A DNA stretch of 64,000 bases from Thermodesulfobacteriota bacterium (GCA_965197885.1 OZ240231.1:1839366-1903365), one strand, 5' to 3'. Counted from the first letter of the stretch, positions 3,631 to 56,598 are shown. Numbers and translations are program-made. The notes: generated by a model not told the origin, from the letters alone.

Positions 3631-5118
3631 ATGAGTTCGCAAGCCGCAAAAAGAACTGGAAAATGGAAATCCCGTATCGCTTCGGAACTCGTAGCAATAC
3701 TGGGCACAGAAGCCGTTATCTCCGCCGAGGATGAACTGATTGCCTATGAAAGCGACGGGCTTACTGGATACAGGGTAAAGCCTGTTTTCGTCGTTCTGCC
3801 TTCGAGCGTAGAGGAGGTTTCCCGGGTAGTAAAGCTTTGCAGTCGGGAGAAAATCCCTTTCGTGCCCAGAGGAGCGGGAACCGGGCTCTCCGGAGGCGCT
3901 CTTCCGAACCGTGAGGGAATAGTGATAGCGCTTTCAAGAATGAACAGGATTCTCGACGTGGATATCCCTAACCGCGTAGTAGTGGTCGAGCCCGGAGTGG
4001 TGAATATTTCTGTGACCGAGGCTGTAAGCGCCGAGGGGTTTTATTACGCCCCCGATCCTTCAAGCCAGATCGTGTGCACCATAGGAGGCAACGTTGCGGA
4101 AAACTCGGGAGGAGTGCATTGTCTTAAGTACGGAGTCACGACCAACCATGTGCTCGGAGTGGAGATGGTTCTTCCCGACGGTGATGTGATTACGCTCGGG
4201 GGCATGACCCCGGAGAATCTCGGGTACGACCTTCTCTCGCTCGTGGTTGGAAGCGAGGGACTTTTGGGGATTGTCACCAAGGTCTTTTTGAGGATAATCA
4301 AAAAACCCCAAGCGGTTAAAACTCTTTTTGCCTCGTTTGAGAGAATCGAAGATGCCGGAGCGTCGGTCTCTGCGATTATTTCTTCCGGGGTGATTCCCGC
4401 GGGAATGGAAATCATGGACAATCTCAGCATAAACGCTGTCGAATCAACTGTGGGCGCTGGATACCCAAGGGACGCCGGGGCGATTCTTCTCGTGGAGCTT
4501 GACGGGCCCGGGGTAGAAGTTAACGCTCAGGTTCCTGCCGTAATCGGGATACTTCGGGAAAACGGCGCGATTGAAATAAAGCTGGCGGCGGATGAAAGCG
4601 AGCGCCAGCTTTTCTGGAAGGGGCGTAAAAGCGCGTTTGCCGCAATGGGGAAAATAAGTCCTGGATACTATGTTCAGGATGGCGTAATACCTAGGAGCAG
4701 CTTGGCCAGGGTACTTGGAGAGATAGGGGAACTGGGTAACCGGTACGGTCTTCGAGTCGCGAACGTCTTTCACGCGGGAGACGGGAATCTGCATCCGCTT
4801 GTGCTCTATGATCCCGAAGTTGAGGGAGAATCAGAGAAAGCCGAGGAGCTTTCCGGAGAAATTCTCAGGGTATGCGTTGATGTCGGCGGGAGCATTACCG
4901 GAGAGCACGGCGTCGGGTTTGACAAAAAGAGATTCCTTCCGCTTATGTTCAGCGAACAGGAAATAGATACAATGAATTTCGTGCGGTGCGCTTTTGACGA
5001 GGAGGGGCTCTGCAATCCCGGCAAAGTATTTCCGACGCCGAGAACGTGTGTTGAGCCCGGGATGCGAAAACAGGACTCCCAAGCTCCTCCAACAAAGGAA
5101 ATGGGGGAGCTTTTCTAA
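3631..5118 (+). CDS. glcD: Glycolate oxidase FAD-linked subunit GlcD
   Basis: FAD-binding PCMH-type domain (GAGTGLSGGA). Start trimmed to MSSQAAK at 3631; the track ORF from 3298 overlaps tsaC on the opposite strand. Confidence 0.8.
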   Translation: MSSQAAKRTGKWKSRIASELVAILGTEAVISAEDELIAYESDGLTGYRVKPVFVVLPSSVEEVSRVVKLCSREKIPFVPRGAGTGLSGGALPNREGIVIALSRMNRILDVDIPNRVVVVEPGVVNISVTEAVSAEGFYYAPDPSSQIVCTIGGNVAENSGGVHCLKYGVTTNHVLGVEMVLPDGDVITLGGMTPENLGYDLLSLVVGSEGLLGIVTKVFLRIIKKPQAVKTLFASFERIEDAGASVSAIISSGVIPAGMEIMDNLSINAVESTVGAGYPRDAGAILLVELDGPGVEVNAQVPAVIGILRENGAIEIKLAADESERQLFWKGRKSAFAAMGKISPGYYVQDGVIPRSSLARVLGEIGELGNRYGLRVANVFHAGDGNLHPLVLYDPEVEGESEKAEELSGEILRVCVDVGGSITGEHGVGFDKKRFLPLMFSEQEIDTMNFVRCAFDEEGLCNPGKVFPTPRTCVEPGMRKQDSQAPPTKEMGELF

Positions 5119-37460: not shown

Positions 37461-38960
37461 TTGTCTGTCGAGGTGAAAATGGCACTGGATGATAATAGCG
37501 TCGCCCGAGAAATGGAACGTTACGTTTCGAATCTCGACAGGGACATTTATACCATAAGCAATATTCCCGAAGAAGTCGTTGCTGTTATCTTCGCCTATGT
37601 AAGCAGAAGCCCGAAAAGTTTCAGGGAAAACATAGATACTGTGATAAGGGAGCAGGAGATGGGGAGGGACAGGGCGGAGAAGTTCCATGAAAAATGGGTT
37701 CTTAACTACGGTCACGCCTCTGTTGCCGAGCACGCGACTGTGCACATAGGCGTTGAGAGGGTTTCAAGACTTTTCTCTTCCCTGCTTGAGTGCGCAAACG
37801 AGTTTCTCTCGTTCACCGAATATTCCCAGAGATACCAGAGACCGCGCAAAGGCGATAATTACATTCCCGAAGAGCTTGACTCACACCCGGCTCTTAAAAG
37901 AGAGTTCGAGTCGCTTTGCGATTTTCAGTACGAAGTTTACTCGAGGCTTAATGGGGAACTTTTTGATTTTCTGAAAAGAAAATTTCCCGTCCCCGAAGGC
38001 AAGGAGGAAAAACCCCACTTCAGGGCGCTTGAGAAAATAGCGTTTGAAGACGCGAGGTACGCTCTTAATCTCTCTACCCTTACGAATCTGGGTATGACGG
38101 CAAACGCAAGAGCCATAGAGCAGACTATCTCCGCGCTTCTTTCAAGCTGCTACCTTGAGGCGAGAAAAAGGGCCGAGGAGATAAAAAGCGAGGTCGGATT
38201 CTCCGTTCCTACGCTTGTAAAATACGCTGACGAAAACCCTTACATAGTCAAAACGCGCGAGGCGCTTGCGGAATTTTCCCGCGGTCTTGGCGGTCCGGAA
38301 AAAAGCAAACCCGAAAACGGATCCTCTGTGACTCTTTTTGACTACACAGGAAAGGGAAAGGAACGTCCCCAGGTCGAGGCGTTAAAGGAGATCGCTAGGG
38401 GGCTTCTTTTCGAATTCTCGGGACTTTCAGCCGGCGATATAGAAAGACATCTTTCCGAAAACACCTCTGAACTTGAGGGGATTTTCTCAATTGCCGTTGA
38501 GGCACTCGGAAGGCACGATAACCCGGCCGGGATATTCAAATCGGTTAGTTACAACGCGGAGTTTGTCCTGAGCGAGGCGGCGTGGCATCAACTGCTCAGG
38601 CACAGGAAAGTCAACTGGACCGCGAAGGAGCCTTCTATTGAGCAAGGCGTGACTATTCCCCCGCACGTTACGGAATCAGGAACGGAGGAACTCCTGCTCG
38701 AGGCCGTCGGACGAAGCGAGCAGTTCTACGAAAAACTCATTGACGCTGGTTTTCGCGATGTCGCGAGCTATGTTGTCACAAATGCTCATAACAGGAGGGT
38801 TTCGGGCAGTTTCGACCTATGGGAGCTTTATCACCTGACGAATCTCAGAATGTCTACCTCGGCACAGTGGGATATAAGAAATGTCGTCAGGCAGCTTGCG
38901 CAGAGCATTGAAGAGGTTCATCCGGTCTTCGTCCGTTCCGCCCTGCGGAGAGTCGAGTGA
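37461..38960 (+). CDS. thyX: FAD-dependent thymidylate synthase ThyX, tandem two-domain form
   Basis: Domain 1 has GHASVAEH and EYSQRY but lacks RHR. Domain 2 has RHR and NLRMSTSAQWDIRN, the ThyX LRxxxHAQWE motif. Confidence 0.65.
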   Translation: MSVEVKMALDDNSVAREMERYVSNLDRDIYTISNIPEEVVAVIFAYVSRSPKSFRENIDTVIREQEMGRDRAEKFHEKWVLNYGHASVAEHATVHIGVERVSRLFSSLLECANEFLSFTEYSQRYQRPRKGDNYIPEELDSHPALKREFESLCDFQYEVYSRLNGELFDFLKRKFPVPEGKEEKPHFRALEKIAFEDARYALNLSTLTNLGMTANARAIEQTISALLSSCYLEARKRAEEIKSEVGFSVPTLVKYADENPYIVKTREALAEFSRGLGGPEKSKPENGSSVTLFDYTGKGKERPQVEALKEIARGLLFEFSGLSAGDIERHLSENTSELEGIFSIAVEALGRHDNPAGIFKSVSYNAEFVLSEAAWHQLLRHRKVNWTAKEPSIEQGVTIPPHVTESGTEELLLEAVGRSEQFYEKLIDAGFRDVASYVVTNAHNRRVSGSFDLWELYHLTNLRMSTSAQWDIRNVVRQLAQSIEEVHPVFVRSALRRVE

Positions 38961-39189: not shown

Positions 39190-39687
39190 GTGGCTGATTC
39201 AAATCACGTCTCGAAAATAAAGGAGGGGGCGGCCGCGTGGAACCGTTGGCGGGGAGAGGAGCCCGATGTTCTGCCGGATCTTGGCTGGGCTAATCTTAAC
39301 GGGCTTAATCTTGACGGTGTGGTATTTGCGAAATCGGTTCTCAAGCTCGCTTTCTGCAAGGGGTGCAGTTTGGTGGGCGCGGATTTCTCCGGGGCTAATC
39401 TGCGCGGAATTAATCTTGAAGGATGCGATCTTCGTGGCGCGGTATTCAGTAATGCTAACCTTGAAGGAGCCCACATGCTGGGCGCTGATCTTACGGGTGC
39501 CGATTTTGCGGGAGCTGACCTCAAGCTTGCCAATTTCGACGGGGCGATCCTGAGGGATGCTAATCTTGCGGGCGCGAAAAAACTGCGGGCTTCCCAGCTT
39601 TTCAGTCTTGGGGATCTTGAAAATCTCAAGGTTTCAGACAAAATCCTGGAGAAGGTGAAAAGCCAGTCCCCTCATCTGTTTGAGTAG
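39190..39687 (+). CDS. Pentapeptide repeat-containing protein
   Basis: Repeated A(D/N)LxG pentapeptides (ADFSGANLRGINLEGCDLRGAVFSNANLEGAHMLGADLTGADFAGADL). GTG start. Confidence 0.8.
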   Translation: MADSNHVSKIKEGAAAWNRWRGEEPDVLPDLGWANLNGLNLDGVVFAKSVLKLAFCKGCSLVGADFSGANLRGINLEGCDLRGAVFSNANLEGAHMLGADLTGADFAGADLKLANFDGAILRDANLAGAKKLRASQLFSLGDLENLKVSDKILEKVKSQSPHLFE

Positions 39688-39852
39688 GTTTTCTCTTCGG
39701 GAACATTCTTTGAAGCTTTACCCTCGTCTCTAAAAGCGGCTCCGTGCTTTCGCTTGGATGTTTACCTATACGAAGATTCTGTGCCGCCGCTTGCCTGTGG
39801 CTTTTCTGGGGAATTTCACCAAAGCTTTTGGTATTTGGACGGAAATTTAAGC

Positions 39853-39908
39853 TTGACTTAGGAAATTATTTACTTATTATAGCAGATAATGATATTTTAT
39901 GCATATCA
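39853..39908 (+). promoter_or_regulatory. abiEi promoter with an inverted-repeat operator
   Basis: -35 TTGACT at 39853-58, a 16 nt spacer, and -10 TATTAT at 39875-80. The inverted repeat TGATAT-N7-ATATCA lies at 39890-39908 over the predicted transcription start. Confidence 0.45.
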
Positions 39909-39922
39909 ATACGGAGACTGCC

Positions 39923-40720
39923 ATGAATAATAAGCGCCCTAGGGCAAGCAGTGTCATAGATGAGTTTGCCTCGGTCGGCCGGTACCATTTCACTGCCGCG
40001 GAAATACGTTCGGCACTAGGCGTATCAGATGCTGCGACTAGACTTGCTCTTGGAAGGCTGGTGAAAAAAGGTTTGGTTGCGAGTCCGGGCCGTGGCTTCT
40101 ACGTCATCGTGCCGCCCGAATACCGACGCTTCGGATGTCTGCCTCCGGCCCAGTTTATCCCGCAGCTTATGGAGCGTCGTGAACGACCGTACTATGTCGC
40201 TTTGCTTTCCGCCGCCCAGTATCATGGGGCCGCTCATCACCGTCCGCAGGTATTCCAAGTCGCCGTCTCCGGAAGCCGCCGCCCGATTTCCTGTGGCGCG
40301 GTCAGGGTTTCCTTCATCTCACGGGCGCGCATTGCCGAGGTTCCGGTTCAGACTCTCAATACGCCATGCGGGACGCTTCTTCTTTCAACCGTTGAAGCAA
40401 CCGCGGTTGACTTGGTGGGTTACGCGCGACGCGCTGCGGGGTGGGACAACGTGGCGACAATTCTCTGCGAACTTGCTGAAGAAATTGATCCGAATCTGCT
40501 GTGCGAAGCTGCGCGAACCGCTCCGGTCACCTGGGCTCAGCGCCTTGGCTATCTCCTGGAACTTGTCGGCGCGGCGGATAAGGCGTTGCCGCTAAAGAAC
40601 TATGTGCGGCGCTACGCCCGTGACATCACGCCGCTCATTCCGCATGCCGCCGTAGATCACGCGAGGCGCGCCGATGACTGGCGGCTGTTGGTAAATGCCG
40701 ACGTGGAGTCTGAGGTATGA
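39923..40720 (+). CDS. abiEi: AbiEi family antitoxin/transcriptional regulator (type IV toxin-antitoxin system)
   Basis: N-terminal winged helix-like region and the AbiEi architecture. GC is clearly higher than in the flanks. Start set at MNNKRPR with a ggaga RBS; the track start at 39899 lies inside the operator. Confidence 0.7.
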   Translation: MNNKRPRASSVIDEFASVGRYHFTAAEIRSALGVSDAATRLALGRLVKKGLVASPGRGFYVIVPPEYRRFGCLPPAQFIPQLMERRERPYYVALLSAAQYHGAAHHRPQVFQVAVSGSRRPISCGAVRVSFISRARIAEVPVQTLNTPCGTLLLSTVEATAVDLVGYARRAAGWDNVATILCELAEEIDPNLLCEAARTAPVTWAQRLGYLLELVGAADKALPLKNYVRRYARDITPLIPHAAVDHARRADDWRLLVNADVESEV

Positions 40721-41532
40721 TCCCGCACCGTTACATCGCCGAGTGGCGAACTCAGGCACCGTGGCTGGAGGATTTCCAAGTCGAGCAGGACCTAATAATA
40801 AGCCGCGCGCTAGTTGAAATATTTTCCCATCCCGTCTTGGCGGCCGGACTTGCTTTTCATGGCGGCACGGCCCTCTACAAACTCTACCTGGAGCAGTCGA
40901 GCCGTTATTCGGAAGATATAGATCTGGTTCGGATAGCTCCCGGACCCGCCGGTGCCATAATGGATTCCATTCACGAAGTTCTCGATCCGTGGCTCGGTAA
41001 ACCTAAATGGAAACAGACCGAGCGCTCCGTTACGCTTCTTTACAGGTTTGAATCAGAAGATACACCGCCTTTACGCATGACTCTGAAAATTGAGATCAAT
41101 TCCCGCGAGCACTTCTCTGTCTTTGGCTATAATAAAGTTCCTTTTTCCGTCATTTCTTCCTGGTTTAACGGAACCTGTGATATTGTTACGTACTCGCTAG
41201 ACGAGCTTCTCGGCACGAAATTGCGCGCCCTTTATCAGCGCAAGAAAGGACGGGATCTTTTTGACTTGGCAACTGCGCTGGATAACGCGGCTGTCGATCC
41301 CGAACGTGTTATCACAGCATTTTTCGAATACATGAAACGGGGCGGCGACCACATCACCCGTGCCTTGTTTGAACGAAACATGGCGGACAAACTGCAAGAC
41401 CCGCGATTTGACGCCGACATAGTACCCTTGCTGGCGCCTGGCTGCCTCTGGAATATGGAAGAGCTGGCTAGAAGCGTTTCCACACGGCTCATTGCATTGT
41501 TGCCCGGTCAACCGTGGAAGGGAGAGGGATGA
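40717..41532 (+). CDS. abiEii: Nucleotidyltransferase AbiEii/AbiGii toxin family protein (DUF1814)
   Basis: HGGTALYKLY...RYSEDIDL nucleotidyltransferase motif. ATGA overlap with abiEi. Confidence 0.8.
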   Translation: MIPHRYIAEWRTQAPWLEDFQVEQDLIISRALVEIFSHPVLAAGLAFHGGTALYKLYLEQSSRYSEDIDLVRIAPGPAGAIMDSIHEVLDPWLGKPKWKQTERSVTLLYRFESEDTPPLRMTLKIEINSREHFSVFGYNKVPFSVISSWFNGTCDIVTYSLDELLGTKLRALYQRKKGRDLFDLATALDNAAVDPERVITAFFEYMKRGGDHITRALFERNMADKLQDPRFDADIVPLLAPGCLWNMEELARSVSTRLIALLPGQPWKGEG

Positions 41533-41729
41533 TTGTAGTAGATAATGACAGTAATTTTGGTAAGTTCTGTTATGCTGCTTGTTCCAGTCTCCATTACTGA
41601 AAGATCCGGTCAATCAGGGCAATTTAAATCGATTCTTACGGATTAGGGAATTTTTACAGTTTAAACTATGTCGAGCGTGATCTCTTGGTCTATGGCCTTG
41701 CCAACGCACTGCCAACCGATTAGCTTAGG

Positions 41730-42887
41730 TTGAAGATGAGCAGAAAAATCTACAGTGTATCGGAACTCAATTCCTCGATAAAAGGGGCGATTGAACTTGA
41801 GTTCGGCGGGCAGACGATATGGGTTGCGGGAGAGATCTCCGGTTTTAAGGGGCATTACGCAAGCGGCCACTGGTATTTTTCCCTAAAGGATGAGCAAAGC
41901 CAGATCTCCGCTGCCTGCTTCAGAAGGGACAACCAGCAAATAAAGTTCACGCCGGAGAACGGAATGGAAATTATATGCGCTGCTCGCGTGGGGGTTTACG
42001 AGAAAAACGGCGTTTACCAGTTATACGTAAGCGCTATGGAACCGAAAGGAGTGGGTGCCGATGCGCTCGCACTTGAAAGACTCAAGCAAAAGCTTCTGGA
42101 AGAGGGACTTTTTGACGTCTCGAAAAAGCGACCCCTTCCGTTTCTCTCCCGTAAAATAGGGGTTGTTACTTCTCCTTCGGGAGCCGCCGTGAGGGATGTC
42201 ATAAAGGTCGTGTACAGAAGGTCTCCCAATGTTGAGGTGATTATTTCACCCGCGAGCGTTCAGGGAGATGGTGCCCCGGGTGAGATAGTTAAAGCTCTTG
42301 AGAGGCTTTACGGCATGGAAGACCTTGATCTTGTGATCGTAACCAGGGGAGGGGGGTCAAAAGAAGATCTGAGGGCTTTTAACGATGAGTGGGTTGCGAG
42401 GAAAATCGCCGCTTCCCCCTTTCCCGTGATCTCCGCCGTAGGTCATGAAGTGGACGTGACCATAGCCGATCTCGTATCCGACGTGAGGGCGGCCACGCCT
42501 TCAATGGCCGCCGAACTTGCCGTAAAGGAAAAAAGGGAGATTCTCGAAGATCTCGCGCAGTTTCGCCGCAGGCTCGATTTTTCTCTCACAAGCCGCATCG
42601 ATATGTTCTCCATGCAGCTTGACGGACTCGCAAACAGCTTCAAACATCACATGACCTTCCGGATTGAGAATCTTGAACGCCGCATCGAGAATTATTCGGG
42701 AAAACTCACTTCTCTTAACCCTTTCGGTGTTCTCCAGAGGGGGTACGCCATAGTTTCAAAGGAAGAAAGCGGCGAGATAGTGCAGGATTCCCGGACGCTT
42801 GAGCACAAGGAAAAGCTCGTTTTAAGACTCAGCAGAGGCAAGGCGTTTTGCAGCGTTGAGGGGACGGAGAACGAACCGCAGACTTGA
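41730..42887 (+). CDS. xseA: Exodeoxyribonuclease VII large subunit
   Basis: N-terminal OB fold (IWVAGEIS) and the catalytic region VISAVGHEVD. Confidence 0.85.
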   Translation: MKMSRKIYSVSELNSSIKGAIELEFGGQTIWVAGEISGFKGHYASGHWYFSLKDEQSQISAACFRRDNQQIKFTPENGMEIICAARVGVYEKNGVYQLYVSAMEPKGVGADALALERLKQKLLEEGLFDVSKKRPLPFLSRKIGVVTSPSGAAVRDVIKVVYRRSPNVEVIISPASVQGDGAPGEIVKALERLYGMEDLDLVIVTRGGGSKEDLRAFNDEWVARKIAASPFPVISAVGHEVDVTIADLVSDVRAATPSMAAELAVKEKREILEDLAQFRRRLDFSLTSRIDMFSMQLDGLANSFKHHMTFRIENLERRIENYSGKLTSLNPFGVLQRGYAIVSKEESGEIVQDSRTLEHKEKLVLRLSRGKAFCSVEGTENEPQT

Positions 42888-43973: not shown

Positions 43974-45329
43974 ATGAAAAGGGAACTTGATTTTGAGAAG
44001 AAAACTTTCGCGGGGGCACTTGAGATCGTAAAGACCCTCGGGGAAAAGGGGCACGAAGCTTTTTTCGTGGGCGGATGCGTGCGCGACGCCCTGCTTGGTG
44101 TTGCGTGCGACGAGATCGATATAGCCACAAGCGCGACTCCGGAGCAGGTGCAGCAAGCGTTTGAGAAGACCGTGGCCGTGGGGGAGAGCTTCGGCGTGGT
44201 GCTCGTGATAAAAGGAGACATGAAGTTTGAGGTTGCCACTTTCAGGAGGGAGTCAAGATATGGTGACGGAAGACACCCAGAAAGTGTCGACTACACGAAA
44301 AGTGCGGAAGAAGATGTCCGAAGAAGGGATTTTACGATCAACGGCATGTTGTACGACCCGGTTTCGGGAGAGCTTTACGATTATGTGGAAGGCCTTGGGG
44401 ATCTTGAACGTGGATTGGTCAGGACCATAGGGGATCCCGAGAAAAGGTTCGGCGAGGACAGGTTGAGAATGATGAGGGCGGTGCGCTTTACGTCATGTCT
44501 CGGTTTTGAGCTTGACGGGGCGGCGCTTTCGGCCATCCGTGAGGCGGCTTCAGGCATATCTGTTGTAAGCGGAGAGAGAATACGGGAAGAACTCGTTAAG
44601 ATACTTACCCGCCAAAATCCGGGTGCCGGACTCAGTCTTCTGAGCTCCTGCGGTCTTCTTCAGCACTTTCTCCCGGAAGTCGAATGCATGCATGGAGTGC
44701 AGCAGCCTCCTCAGTTCCATCCCGAAGGTGATGTGTTTGACCACACCTGTCTCGTGATGGAGATGCTCTATGGCAACACAGACGGCCGCTACTCTGAGGA
44801 ACTTGCGGTTGCCGCGCTTCTCCATGATGTGGGCAAGCCGCCTACTTACAGCGAATCCGACAGGATAAGGTTCAACGGACATGACAGGGTGGGGGCCAGG
44901 ATGTCGGAGGATATATGCAGGAGGCTCAGATTTTCCAAAAAGCAGATAAAGAGAATTTCCGAGCTTATCCTCGAGCATCTCAAGTTCAAGGACGTTTTCA
45001 ATATGAGAGAAAGTACCCTGAAAAAATTCCTTTCACTTCCGTATTTTGAAGAACATATGCAAATGCATCTTGCCGACTGCATGGCCAGCCACGGGAAAAC
45101 GGACGCCTACGATTTTATCAGGGAAAAGATGGAGGAGTACGGACGGGAGGAAATAAAGCCCCTTCCGCTTCTCGGCGGAGGGGATCTTATAGACCTCGGT
45201 TATTCTCCCGGTCCCGTTTTTTCCGAAATACTGGGACAGGTGGAAGAACTCCAGCTTGAAAACAGGCTTTCCTCAAAGGAAGAGGCTATAGATTTTGTTC
45301 TGAAAAATTATCCCGGCAACAACAGTTAG
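43974..45329 (+). CDS. cca: CCA tRNA nucleotidyltransferase with an HD domain
   Basis: GGCVRD and DIDIAT polymerase-beta motifs, and the HD motif LLHDVGK. Confidence 0.85.
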   Translation: MKRELDFEKKTFAGALEIVKTLGEKGHEAFFVGGCVRDALLGVACDEIDIATSATPEQVQQAFEKTVAVGESFGVVLVIKGDMKFEVATFRRESRYGDGRHPESVDYTKSAEEDVRRRDFTINGMLYDPVSGELYDYVEGLGDLERGLVRTIGDPEKRFGEDRLRMMRAVRFTSCLGFELDGAALSAIREAASGISVVSGERIREELVKILTRQNPGAGLSLLSSCGLLQHFLPEVECMHGVQQPPQFHPEGDVFDHTCLVMEMLYGNTDGRYSEELAVAALLHDVGKPPTYSESDRIRFNGHDRVGARMSEDICRRLRFSKKQIKRISELILEHLKFKDVFNMRESTLKKFLSLPYFEEHMQMHLADCMASHGKTDAYDFIREKMEEYGREEIKPLPLLGGGDLIDLGYSPGPVFSEILGQVEELQLENRLSSKEEAIDFVLKNYPGNNS

Positions 45330-45350: not shown

Positions 45351-45530
45351 TCACGATCTGACCTGTAGTGGCAGATTTTCCGGATCAATAGCAAAGGCAG
45401 CGGGATCACCGAGCCATTCGTCCGCATATTCGAATACAGAACTTCGGCCTTGGGGCCTGAAATGGCGTAACAGTCCGACCATGCGTGCACCGTCTGGCCG
45501 ATCAATATGGACTTCAATTGTGTCTGTCAT
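45351..45530 (-). pseudogene. hipA: Truncated HipA toxin gene: only the N-terminal 59 codons remain
   Basis: Frame read by eye as MTDTIEVHIDRPDGARMVGLLRHFRPQGRSSVFEYADEWLGDPAAFAIDPENLPLQVRS, which fits the HipA N-terminal domain pattern (VG.L, F.Y...WL, LPL). ATGA overlap with the upstream XRE gene. The kinase core is absent. Confidence 0.5.
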
Positions 45531-45898
45531 CGGAAAATCCTGTTTTTCCTGCGGCGGGTAGGCATGATTTTCTTGGGCAGATGGTCCTCGTCGAGGTCAA
45601 GACCCAAGGTGTCATTGATGCGATCGGCAACTTGACCGAGGCCTTCTGCGAGACCAAGGATAGCGAGAACTGCCGCGTAGATACCTATCGAGACTGTGGG
45701 GTCGCCCTTTTCAACCTTGTAAAGCGTGGCGCGACTGATAAAGGCGCGTTCCGCCATTGAGACCGTCGAGATACGGCGTTTTTTGCGCGCAACAGCTATA
45801 TCCGCGCCGAGTTTCACTAAAGCTCGCCGGGCTGCCCGAGGAAGCGTTCTTGGTGCTTGTGATTTCATAATTTGTCTTATATTATTACCGATAGACAT
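45527..45898 (-). CDS. hipB: XRE-family HTH regulator (HipB-like antitoxin)
   Basis: HTH motif ISTVSMAERAFISRATLYKVEKG. The start is uncertain: ATG at 45898, 45868, or GTG at 45922. Confidence 0.6.
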   Translation of the reverse strand: MSIGNNIRQIMKSQAPRTLPRAARRALVKLGADIAVARKKRRISTVSMAERAFISRATLYKVEKGDPTVSIGIYAAVLAILGLAEGLGQVADRINDTLGLDLDEDHLPKKIMPTRRRKNRIFR

Positions 45899-47218: not shown

Positions 47219-47220
47219 GT

Positions 47221-47562
47221 CTAGCCCTTCAAACCCTTACCTATTATTATTATCATTACGGAAGCTAAGCCTATCATTAAACCATATATATTTAGTTTTG
47301 CAAATAGGAGTAAAACCGCTATTATCGCAAGCAGCGCGAGCAATTTCATAACCAGTATGAATATGGAAAACGCGAGTGAATACCTGTTTTCCGCAAGCGC
47401 TCTTACGACAAATTTTATGGCCACGTAATCCAGCAGAAAAAGTACTCCCGCGACCGCTATGGCCACCGCGACCTCTCTTTCCCCGATGGCGATATTCACG
47501 GCGAAAAGAAGTGCCGTTACGGCCAAAGACAGTTTCTCAACTCCAAGATTAAGATTCTTCAT
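47221..47562 (-). CDS. atpI: ATP synthase protein I-like small membrane protein
   Basis: 113 aa with 3-4 TM segments, immediately upstream of atpB. Confidence 0.45.
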   Translation of the reverse strand: MKNLNLGVEKLSLAVTALLFAVNIAIGEREVAVAIAVAGVLFLLDYVAIKFVVRALAENRYSLAFSIFILVMKLLALLAIIAVLLLFAKLNIYGLMIGLASVMIIIIGKGLKG

Positions 47563-47786
47563 CGTTGCCGTCTTCTCTTTTCTGTCTCAGTTTCAGGGTC
47601 CGCAAAAGCAGGGTCAGTCCCGCTATTACTCCGCACACAAGACCTAGCAGGGTAAAGAAAGGGAAGGCGGTGTCAAGTTTTCCGTCGATATAGTCGCCGA
47701 GGAAGAGCCCCGCTATGACGGAAAAAGCGAACTCAATTCCGATTACAGCGAAAAAAAGCCAGTTAGGATTTCTGATTTTTCTCTCC

Positions 47787-56524: not shown

Positions 56525-56598
56525 TGGGGCGTCGTCTAACGGCAGGACACCGGGTTTTGGTCCCGGTAGTGGGGGTTCGAGTCCTCCCGCCCCAGCCA
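56525..56598 (+). tRNA. tRNA-Gln (anticodon TTG)
   Basis: Cloverleaf folded by hand. Acceptor stem TGGGGCG/CGCCCCA has the U1-A72 pair typical of bacterial tRNA-Gln. Anticodon loop is TTTTGGT and the T-loop is GTTCGAGTC. CCA is encoded. Confidence 0.8.

Follow-up and report, generated by a model that had tools for sequence, protein, structure and literature searches.

An apparently intact AbiE-type toxin-antitoxin cassette beside xseA in a Candidatus Dadabacteria genome

Two overlapping genes stand between a pentapeptide-repeat gene and xseA in a 64-kb stretch of a Candidatus Dadabacteria genome (an uncultured phylum); the whole of this stretch is called the window below. A first reading of the sequence, the original prediction, took the two genes for an AbiEi/AbiEii type IV toxin-antitoxin (TA) cassette that is set off from its surroundings as a compositional islet and possibly bounded by a recombination or insertion scar. 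The locus raises two questions, whether the genes form a working TA module and whether they arrived recently. We consider it very likely that they are a functional bicistronic TA module of the AbiE family (COG5340-COG2253), nearest in fold to Mycobacterium tuberculosis Rv2827c-Rv2826c (MenA4-MenT4). The comparison with relatives answers the second question in the negative.

Identity and integrity of the two genes

Profile searches place both proteins in AbiE families. The product of the downstream gene, AbiEii, matches the Pfam family AbiEii (DUF1814, PF08843) at 8.9e-38, with a score of 131 against a cut-off of 22.5 bits, and PADLOC PDLC02294 over its full length (5.9e-108). The product of the upstream gene, AbiEi, matches AbiEi_1 of Pfam over the full model (3e-45, residues 72-214), AbiEi_4 (2.6e-7, residues 12-63) and, over its full length, PADLOC PDLC02282 (2.6e-87). 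AbiEi_4 and DUF1814, the two families that the original prediction had named for a hidden Markov model (HMM) search, were therefore both recovered.

Structure prediction was needed because sequence searches against the PDB gave little: single-sequence phmmer searches with AbiEi and AbiEii found nothing relevant, the AbiEi profile did no better, and only the AbiEii profile gave matches, weak ones to 9HLO (E to 9HLO_B 1.2e-3) and 6Y56. The top 14 PDB matches of the AlphaFold2 model of AbiEii (pLDDT 86.6) are all DUF1814 proteins, and MenT4 (6Y56) is the best of them by TM-score (0.68). The predicted fold of AbiEi has four significant PDB matches (E <= 1e-3), which fall only on Rv2827c/MenA4 (1ZEL, 1e-8) and the AbiEi of Streptococcus agalactiae (6Y8Q, 4e-7). 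Toxin model and antitoxin model thus both point to AbiE of the Rv2827c-Rv2826c type.

The catalytic motifs of AbiEii, searched as the pattern hGG...x15...DhD with R in motif II, K...R in motif III and +DxxD in motif IV, are complete: FHGG (49-50), R63-Y-S65-E-D67-I-D69, T-K168-LRALYQ-R175 and R179-D180-LF-D183. They include the HGGTAL...SEDIDL motif that had been read at the outset, and motif II can be set residue for residue against that of MenT4 (RYSEDIDL here, RFSTDLDF there). Thirteen residues are invariant in the homologue alignments (G49, G50, R63, S65, D67, D69, K124, E126, K168, R175, R179, D180 and D183). In the S. agalactiae toxin, mutation of G49, R63, D67, D69, K173, R180 or D192 abolishes toxicity (PMC3985639); through the alignment with 9HLO_B these correspond to G49, R63, D67, D69, K168, R175 and D183 of AbiEii, and S65 falls on the phosphoacceptor T65 of 9HLO_B. 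Judged by this alignment, AbiEii has every residue known to be needed for the toxicity of DUF1814 nucleotidyltransferases.

The two open reading frames (ORFs) were found as predicted, with the abiEi stop and the abiEii start sharing 4 nt, ATGA, at 40717-40720. The junction is ATGA or GTGA in 54/54 homologous loci, and as read from the DNA the overlap couples the translation of the two genes. An alternative ATG upstream, at 39899, would lengthen AbiEi to 273 aa; the start at 39923 is favoured because most homologues have 265 aa. HMMs, motif-level alignment and predicted folds thus bear out an AbiEi/AbiEii cassette, apparently intact and typical of AbiE.

The cassette among its relatives

We compared the same site, between the pentapeptide-repeat gene and xseA, in eight further Dadabacteria lineages. 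Four have the full cassette (L009, L089, L114 and L153), one has abiEi only (L010/L154, two assemblies 97.6% identical) and three have neither gene (L011, L012 and L013, the last a distant outgroup). In the cassette-free lineages the pentapeptide-repeat gene lies directly beside xseA, with spacers of 32, 77 and 88 nt, respectively, which confirms that the cassette separates these two genes and supports the claim that it is a horizontally acquired accessory element. The five other strain-level contigs that reach the cassette region all carry it, with AbiEii 99.6-100% identical where covered. Beyond these genomes, public homologues at 60-94% identity number more than 8000 for AbiEii and more than 5000 for AbiEi, some of them named 'AbiEii/AbiGii toxin family protein [Candidatus Dadabacteria bacterium]'.

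Synonymous divergence (dS) of the window from L009, L010 and L089 is 0.70-0.82 for abiEi and 0.80-1.2 for abiEii. The flanks give 0.57-0.82, and from this similarity it follows that the cassette is an old resident and its insertion not fresh. The ratio of non-synonymous to synonymous divergence (dN/dS) is 0.10-0.16 for abiEi and 0.13-0.15 for abiEii; both genes are under purifying selection.

A history of a single gain, vertical descent and two losses is a first approximation only, as two results show recombination. The dS of abiEi between L010 and L089/L114 is 0.34-0.44 against 0.70-0.81 in the flanks, and in sliding-window identity L010 is a mosaic, its promoter and the 5′ two-thirds of its abiEi resembling L089/L114, the 3′ end of the gene and the downstream spacer resembling the window.

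In L010/L154 abiEii has been cleanly deleted (L010 9780-9800, L154 4790-4810). The orphan AbiEi gene is fused at its 3′ end to the last ~20 nt of abiEii and encodes 269 aa ending in ...ESEVPWFQ; because the junction is identical in the two assemblies, the orphan antitoxin is a shared state of the species. Partial AbiEii matches with the contig continuing beyond them were seen in L143 (3001-3258, 82 residues) and L137 (3001-3435, 147 residues), while most other partial matches in metagenomic loci stop at a contig end. Decay of the toxin gene may be common in the AbiEii family.

Composition gives a mixed picture. In the GC and codon windows that the original prediction called for, abiEi (GC 0.591) is the highest 800-nt stretch of the window (z +3.2; window mean 0.507); abiEii (0.518) is ordinary (z +0.4), and the flanking spacers (0.41 and 0.40), originally read as an AT-rich contrast, are normal for intergenic DNA here (0.453 +/- 0.043). 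The excess in abiEi lies in codon positions 1 and 2 (GC1 z +3.05, GC2 z +2.6, GC3 z +0.7) and so reflects an Ala/Arg-rich protein (14.7% Ala, 10.6% Arg). Codon choice had been described as CGC/GCG-rich. For arginine this holds strongly, the CGN:AGR ratio being 40:7 in the cassette against 37:84 in five flanking genes (p = 1e-10), and the bias recurs in the cassettes of L009, L010 and L089 (p 1e-5 to 1e-11); GCG-Ala codons are not enriched in the cassette. Homologues from outside Dadabacteria at 60-67% identity stand on contigs of GC 0.52-0.69 and use CGN almost exclusively. Arginine codon choice is thus a true foreign signature, which supports a horizontal origin from a GC-richer lineage, though not a recent one.

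As a sign of recent arrival the islet does not hold up: cassette dS is like that of the flanks, GC3 of abiEi in L010 is 0.70, below its flanks (0.72-0.78), and syntenic copies exist elsewhere. The same genes in a syntenic, compositionally unremarkable context, an observation that would speak against the islet, were in part found, at least five other lineages having them at this site (L009, L089, L114, L153 and, as a half cassette, L010/L154). We propose that the cassette was acquired horizontally, before these Dadabacteria species split, from a GC-richer donor that used CGN arginine codons. It would have stayed at one site, between the pentapeptide-repeat gene and xseA, to be partly shuffled later among lineages by recombination and lost stepwise in some, beginning with the toxin (L010/L154) and ending with the whole cassette (L011, L012).

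Control region, direct repeat and edges

The promoter of the original prediction, TTGACT-16-TATTAT, is present and has 10/12 consensus matches. A promoter scan yields no more sites than shuffled sequence (2 observed against 1.8), so that support comes from conservation across orthologues. The -35 hexamer is invariant in 5/5 aligned Dadabacteria cassettes, and the -10 position is kept in the five at unchanged spacing, as TAATAT in L009, TAAACT in L010 and L114 and TAATCT in L089. The Shine-Dalgarno block ATACGGAGACTGCCATG is kept in L009 and L153.

An operator-like palindrome of the form 13-N7-13, TACTTATTATAGC-agataat-GATATTTTATGCA, spans the -10 hexamer and the predicted transcription start, placed at ~39887-39889; an autorepressor would be expected to act at such a position. 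From 50-odd homologous metagenome loci we derived a family consensus, TGCGyAAAGTATC-N7-GATACTTTrCGCA (TGCGTAAAGTATC-N7-GATACTTTACGCA), that lies directly upstream of abiEi; a low-GC branch of lower identity (AbiEi 34-38% identical) has the variant TGCAAAAAGGGAT-N7-ATCCCTTTTTGCA. The operator of the window scores 18/26 to the consensus (99th percentile of shuffles 16, maximum 17). Its right arm, GATATTTTATGCA, scores 11/13; the left arm, which falls on the -10 hexamer, is degenerate. In L010, L089 and L114, which score 21-22/26, the palindrome keeps the register of the window and lies equally far, 19 nt, from the start codon. This distance is due to an 18-nt leader, containing the Shine-Dalgarno sequence, in Dadabacteria; in other homologues it is 1 nt.

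The inverted repeat TGATAT-N7-ATATCA, originally read as the operator, exists, and an operator-type palindrome does lie at the predicted start. The particular repeat is not supported: at least one perfect inverted repeat with 6-nt arms occurs in 36% of shuffled spacers, and its ATATCA arm has not been kept, L010, L089 and L114 reading ATATAA there and L009 GTACAG. In L153 the right operator arm, ribosome-binding site and abiEi start are partly repeated (…ACGCGTATAAATATGTAGACTGCCATGAATAATGAGC…) at 3880-3925, upstream of the abiE -35 box; the extra copy may have remained from a tandem duplication or from an older cassette that was later replaced at the same place.

The direct repeat was found as described, AGATAATGA occurring exactly twice in the window (39884-92 and 41540-48) within a longer match of 15/17. 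It is no scar of an insertion; a chance match in AT-rich sequence is the probable explanation. The empty sites of L011, L012 and L013, where a single copy had been looked for, contain none. At the positions orthologous to the right copy, relatives read aAATAATGA (L010), AACTGGTGA (L089) and AAGTGGC-A (L009), and in the left copy AGATAAT is the 7-nt operator spacer, while the two bases after it begin the right arm. Among shuffled spacer pairs, 19.5% share an exact 9-mer, 30% reach or exceed the observed gapped local score and 0.4% have a 15/17 match, a length that was picked after the match was seen.

The edges of the segment that is present or absent lie elsewhere, at ~39757-39839 on the left and ~41697 on the right, with the repeat copies inside. 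On the left, homology among cassette-bearing loci begins 15-35 nt upstream of the -35 box. On the right, the block CTTGCCAAC...CGATTAGCTTA can be aligned in all cassette-bearing loci and also in cassette-free L012, so it is native and not part of the cassette; it is probably the xseA promoter. CTTG at both edges (~39754 and ~41697) was considered as a target-site duplication and set aside: 4 nt are too few, and the spacers have diverged too far for a judgement. Two other candidates were rejected: the downstream repeat copy as a second operator (at most 14/26 to the consensus in any register, inside the null range) and the right spacer as a relic of a second promoter or of the abiEi 5′ end (local alignment score no better than shuffles).

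The 164-nt spacer downstream of abiEii occurs only with the cassette. L010/L154 have it at 76% identity and L089 in diverged form; L009, L153 and the empty sites are without it. It matches no Rfam family, and its RNA fold z-score of 0.06 gives no sign of structured RNA; Rfam over 39500-41900 returned one sub-threshold snoRNA match, within abiEi, that we take as chance. The spacer holds small ORFs of 23 aa (its ATG at 41529 overlapping the abiEii stop) and 33 aa (from 41545). At the other end of the cassette, ~130 nt between the stop of the pentapeptide gene and the shared promoter block are found in the window lineage only and include a terminator-like hairpin, possibly the terminator of the pentapeptide gene.

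Mechanism, role and surroundings

Two characterised systems bear on how the cassette may work. Like MenA4-MenT4, it has the antitoxin gene upstream and a long antitoxin (~265-295 aa) that joins a winged helix-turn-helix (HTH) to an AbiEi_1-type C-terminal domain. Rv2827c is autoregulated through inverted repeats overlapping its promoter (PMC7319586), to which the palindrome read here from sequence alone would correspond. The differences are a sequence identity of only ~16-17% to the cassette proteins and an operator arrangement of four 23-bp repeats in two pairs (PMC7319586), where the cassette family has a single 13-N7-13 palindrome. MenT4 reportedly uses GTP specifically and does not become phosphorylated.

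The reference AbiE of S. agalactiae (SAG1284/1285) is likewise bicistronic with a 4-nt overlap (PMC3985639), has its promoter within ~60 bp of the start codon and a palindromic operator across promoter and transcription start, and shares the toxicity residues in identical or equivalent form (G49, R63, D67, D69, K173/K168, R180/R175, D192/D183), with Ser/Thr at 65. Its antitoxin is shorter (~195 aa; assigned to DUF4095 in the 2014 paper, PMC3985639), its operator consists of two 23-bp repeats 3 bp apart (TGTTGCTTTTA...) that are unrelated in sequence to the operator here, and it is carried on an integrative and conjugative element (ICE), whereas the window cassette is chromosomal, between housekeeping genes. 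Homologues of the PADLOC subfamily (PDLC02282/PDLC02294) have the same 13-N7-13 operator consensus upstream of abiEi and differ in nothing essential; against them, the window stands out by its degenerate left operator arm.

By analogy with characterised homologues, AbiEi would bind the palindrome and repress its own operon. In the manner of MenT toxins, and as reported for S. agalactiae AbiEii, the AbiEii of the window would add nucleotides to the 3′ ends of tRNAs, which would block aminoacylation and translation and so arrest growth. Phage infection, or any other loss of antitoxin supply, would free the toxin. How AbiEi might neutralise it depends on the model chosen. A 2026 preprint has S. 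agalactiae AbiEi binding the toxin and inducing auto-phosphorylation of T65, with a conserved antitoxin loop (AbiEi D85-E86-I87) contacting the toxin and triggering the reaction; it moves S. agalactiae AbiE to type VII, of which MenAT1, MenAT3 and S. agalactiae AbiE are examples (phosphoacceptors AbiEii T65 and MenT3 S78). The type IV label of the original prediction accordingly agrees with Pfam and the 2014 literature, and not with this reclassification. The window toxin has a Ser at the phosphoacceptor position (S65), which is necessary and not sufficient. MenT4 is reported neither to interact with MenA4 nor to be phosphorylated. We hold a type VII route, by binding and induced auto-phosphorylation of Ser65, and a non-contact, type IV-like route as in MenA4-MenT4 to be about equally likely.

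Other accounts of the locus differ in what they make of its age and of its toxin. A recent compositional islet, left by an insertion or recombination with AGATAATGA at both ends and a single copy expected at empty sites, would explain why the 9-mer is confined to two places in 64 kb, why its 15/17 extension is rare in shuffles and why abiEi is the GC peak of the window, and it accords with the existence of cassette-free relatives. The empty sites nevertheless lack the 9-mer, both copies lie inside the segment that comes and goes, L089 and L009 lack the right copy, L010 has it in imperfect form, and the left copy is the spacer of a conserved operator; with an exact 9-mer and the gapped score so readily obtained by shuffling, dS close to that of the flanks and unremarkable GC3, we regard a recent islet as extremely improbable. 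Hardly more credible, though less remote, is a decaying or domesticated remnant, with genes intact by chance or kept for regulation by AbiEi while the toxin is inactive. The lineage does lose the toxin, as the orphan abiEi of L010/L154 illustrates, several metagenomic loci match AbiEii in part only (mostly ending at the contig end), the left operator arm of the window is degenerate, and a second TA module in the window (hipBA-like) is without its toxin. The window abiEii, on the other hand, has its full length and lacks none of the catalytic and family-invariant residues, its dN/dS stays low over a dS of ~0.8-1.2, promoter, Shine-Dalgarno sequence and ATGA coupling are intact, and the five other strain-level contigs keep a nearly identical AbiEii.

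A stronger competitor, if still the less likely choice, accepts the module and gives it another role, as an addiction or stabilisation element or a stress-responsive growth regulator rather than an anti-phage system. AbiE stabilises ICEs in Streptococcus suis (PMC11062541), AbiEi affects stress response and nodulation in Mesorhizobium (PMC8436566), and the nearest plasmid-borne relatives of the cassette are mostly on conjugative Rhizobium plasmids; the cassette also stands among housekeeping genes, outside any defence island or mobile element, and S. agalactiae AbiE gave Escherichia coli no protection from 32 phages. Against it, Lactococcus lactis AbiE and the related SanaTA and RlegTA do defend against phages, AbiE by one account ranks fourth in abundance among defence systems, it is hard to see what a chromosomal cassette without a linked mobile element would stabilise, and patchy presence with recombination is typical of defence genes. 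A role in phage defence is plausible.

We thus prefer the reading of a functional AbiE module of old horizontal origin, and several results weigh against it. AbiEi scores 22.2 bits (E 9.5e-5) to the NCBIfam equivalog NF047376 TAA_AbiEi, far short of the curated cut-off (150 bits), and AbiEii matched none of the NCBIfam models, so that the cassette is of another subfamily than the curated equivalogs; by its sequence, AbiEi belongs to the wider AbiEi family outside the NF047376 group. The predicted structure of AbiEi is of modest confidence (pLDDT 68.6, pTM 0.52), low at residues 54-57 and 95-109. The window operator is a poor palindrome, with a self-complementarity of 8/13 only, and with the left arm doubling as the -10 hexamer autorepression may be weak or rest on the right arm. 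S65 does not settle the mode of neutralisation, because MenT4 also has a Ser there and yet is reported unphosphorylated. Since S. agalactiae AbiE failed against 32 coliphages, one cannot take it that every AbiE serves in defence. For this cassette, toxicity and its rescue, binding to DNA, modification of tRNA and protection from phages are all ascribed by analogy; purifying selection on both genes and the toxin-first loss in L010/L154 bear on toxicity and rescue indirectly only. Finally, the tree of the cassette does not agree in every respect with that of the flanks, and a single ancient gain is a parsimony argument from few genomes.

The features discussed are collected in Table 1. The cassette lies among housekeeping genes: upstream are the pentapeptide-repeat gene, a small zinc-ribbon-like ORF and a double-domain ThyX gene, downstream xseA and genes for an AMP-binding enzyme and a CCA-adding enzyme. 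The only tRNA gene in the window is ~15 kb from the cassette and has no integrase beside it. Searches for a vehicle gave 2 matches in phage records and plasmid relatives only 45-52% identical, none of which identifies one.

Table 1. Features of the cassette region and its neighbours, in window coordinates
Feature	Position	Strand	Remark
double-domain ThyX gene	37461..38960		499 aa
segment of the window lineage only	39688..39816		~130 nt
terminator-like hairpin	39786..39801		
-35 hexamer TTGACT of the abiE promoter	39853..39858	+	promoter scan
operator-like palindrome, 13-N7-13	39871..39903	.	overlaps -10 and predicted transcription start
-10 hexamer TATTAT	39875..39880	+	16-nt spacing; inside operator left arm
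direct repeat, left copy ATTATAGCAGATAATGA	39876..39892	+	covers -10, operator spacer and first two right-arm bases
inverted repeat TGATAT (39890-95)-N7-ATATCA (39903-08) of the original prediction	39890..39908	.	left arm common with right arm of conserved operator
Shine-Dalgarno GGAG	39913..39916	+	6 nt 5′ of the abiEi ATG; read from sequence
abiEi	39923..40720	+	predicted antitoxin and putative autorepressor, 265 aa; N-terminal winged HTH and AbiEi_1 (Rv2827c-type) C-terminal domain
abiEii	40717..41532	+	predicted DUF1814 pol-beta-type nucleotidyltransferase toxin, 271 aa
direct repeat, right copy ATTGTAGTAGATAATGA	41532..41548	+	begins at final base of abiEii stop codon; not operator-like, not conserved
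cassette-associated downstream spacer	41533..41696	+	164 nt
native xseA-proximal block CTTGCCAAC...CGATTAGCTTA	41697..41735	+	
tRNA CCA-adding enzyme gene	43974..45329		two genes 3′ of abiEii
hipBA-like TA module	45351..45868	-	3.8 kb downstream
tRNA-Gln gene	56525..56598		

Some neighbours deserve a remark of their own. The product of thyX has two stretches matching the Thy1 domain and so may be a flavin-dependent thymidylate synthase with a tandem or fused double domain; it is conserved in all relatives, L013 among them. The CCA-adding enzyme gene stands close to a toxin gene whose homologues modify tRNA CCA ends, a proximity that is probably coincidental because the gene order is the same in cassette-free L011-L013. 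In the hipBA-like module the 113-aa HTH partner is intact and a deletion of ~1.05 kb has left only the first 56 codons of the hipA-like toxin (the same in L003); sister strains L001, L002, L006, L007 and L008 keep a full HipA of 405-407 aa. The loss of a toxin with its antitoxin kept is the pattern seen for abiEii in L010.

Farther along, an IS605-type OrfB/TnpB gene (394 aa) lies between the ATP-synthase genes and an aminotransferase gene (window 47219-47786) in L001 (17935-19119) and in L005 and L006 (16916-18100). It is absent in the window, L002, L003 and L007 and is a strain-level insertion polymorphism. L006 also has, at 1996-2992, an extra gene with a SocA_Panacea domain (181 aa) and a 138-aa ORF, possibly a TA-like pair, both lacking in the other variants.

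A wider picture may be drawn tentatively, and we think it rather doubtful as a whole. The spacer between the pentapeptide-repeat gene and xseA could be a small fixed recombination site at which AbiE is repeatedly exchanged, replaced and dismantled; the orphan AbiEi could be a long-lived repressor or 'anti-addiction' factor against incoming abiE, with toxin-first decay also at the hipBA-like module; the 13-N7-13 palindrome could be the defining operator of the Rv2827c-type AbiEi subfamily; and the left arm in the window could have been traded for a better -10, loosening autorepression.

For discovery the locus adds little, since AbiE is very common and thousands of near relatives in this subfamily have already been labelled by automated pipelines. 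It offers a caution for readings made from one sequence, as the high GC of a single gene came from amino-acid composition and a striking flanking repeat was no scar, and it offers the consensus given above as a candidate operator for the Rv2827c-type AbiEi subfamily. It is also of modest value as a clean natural series at one chromosomal site, with full cassette, orphan antitoxin and empty site, that shows the gain of a TA/defence module, its recombination and its loss, toxin first.

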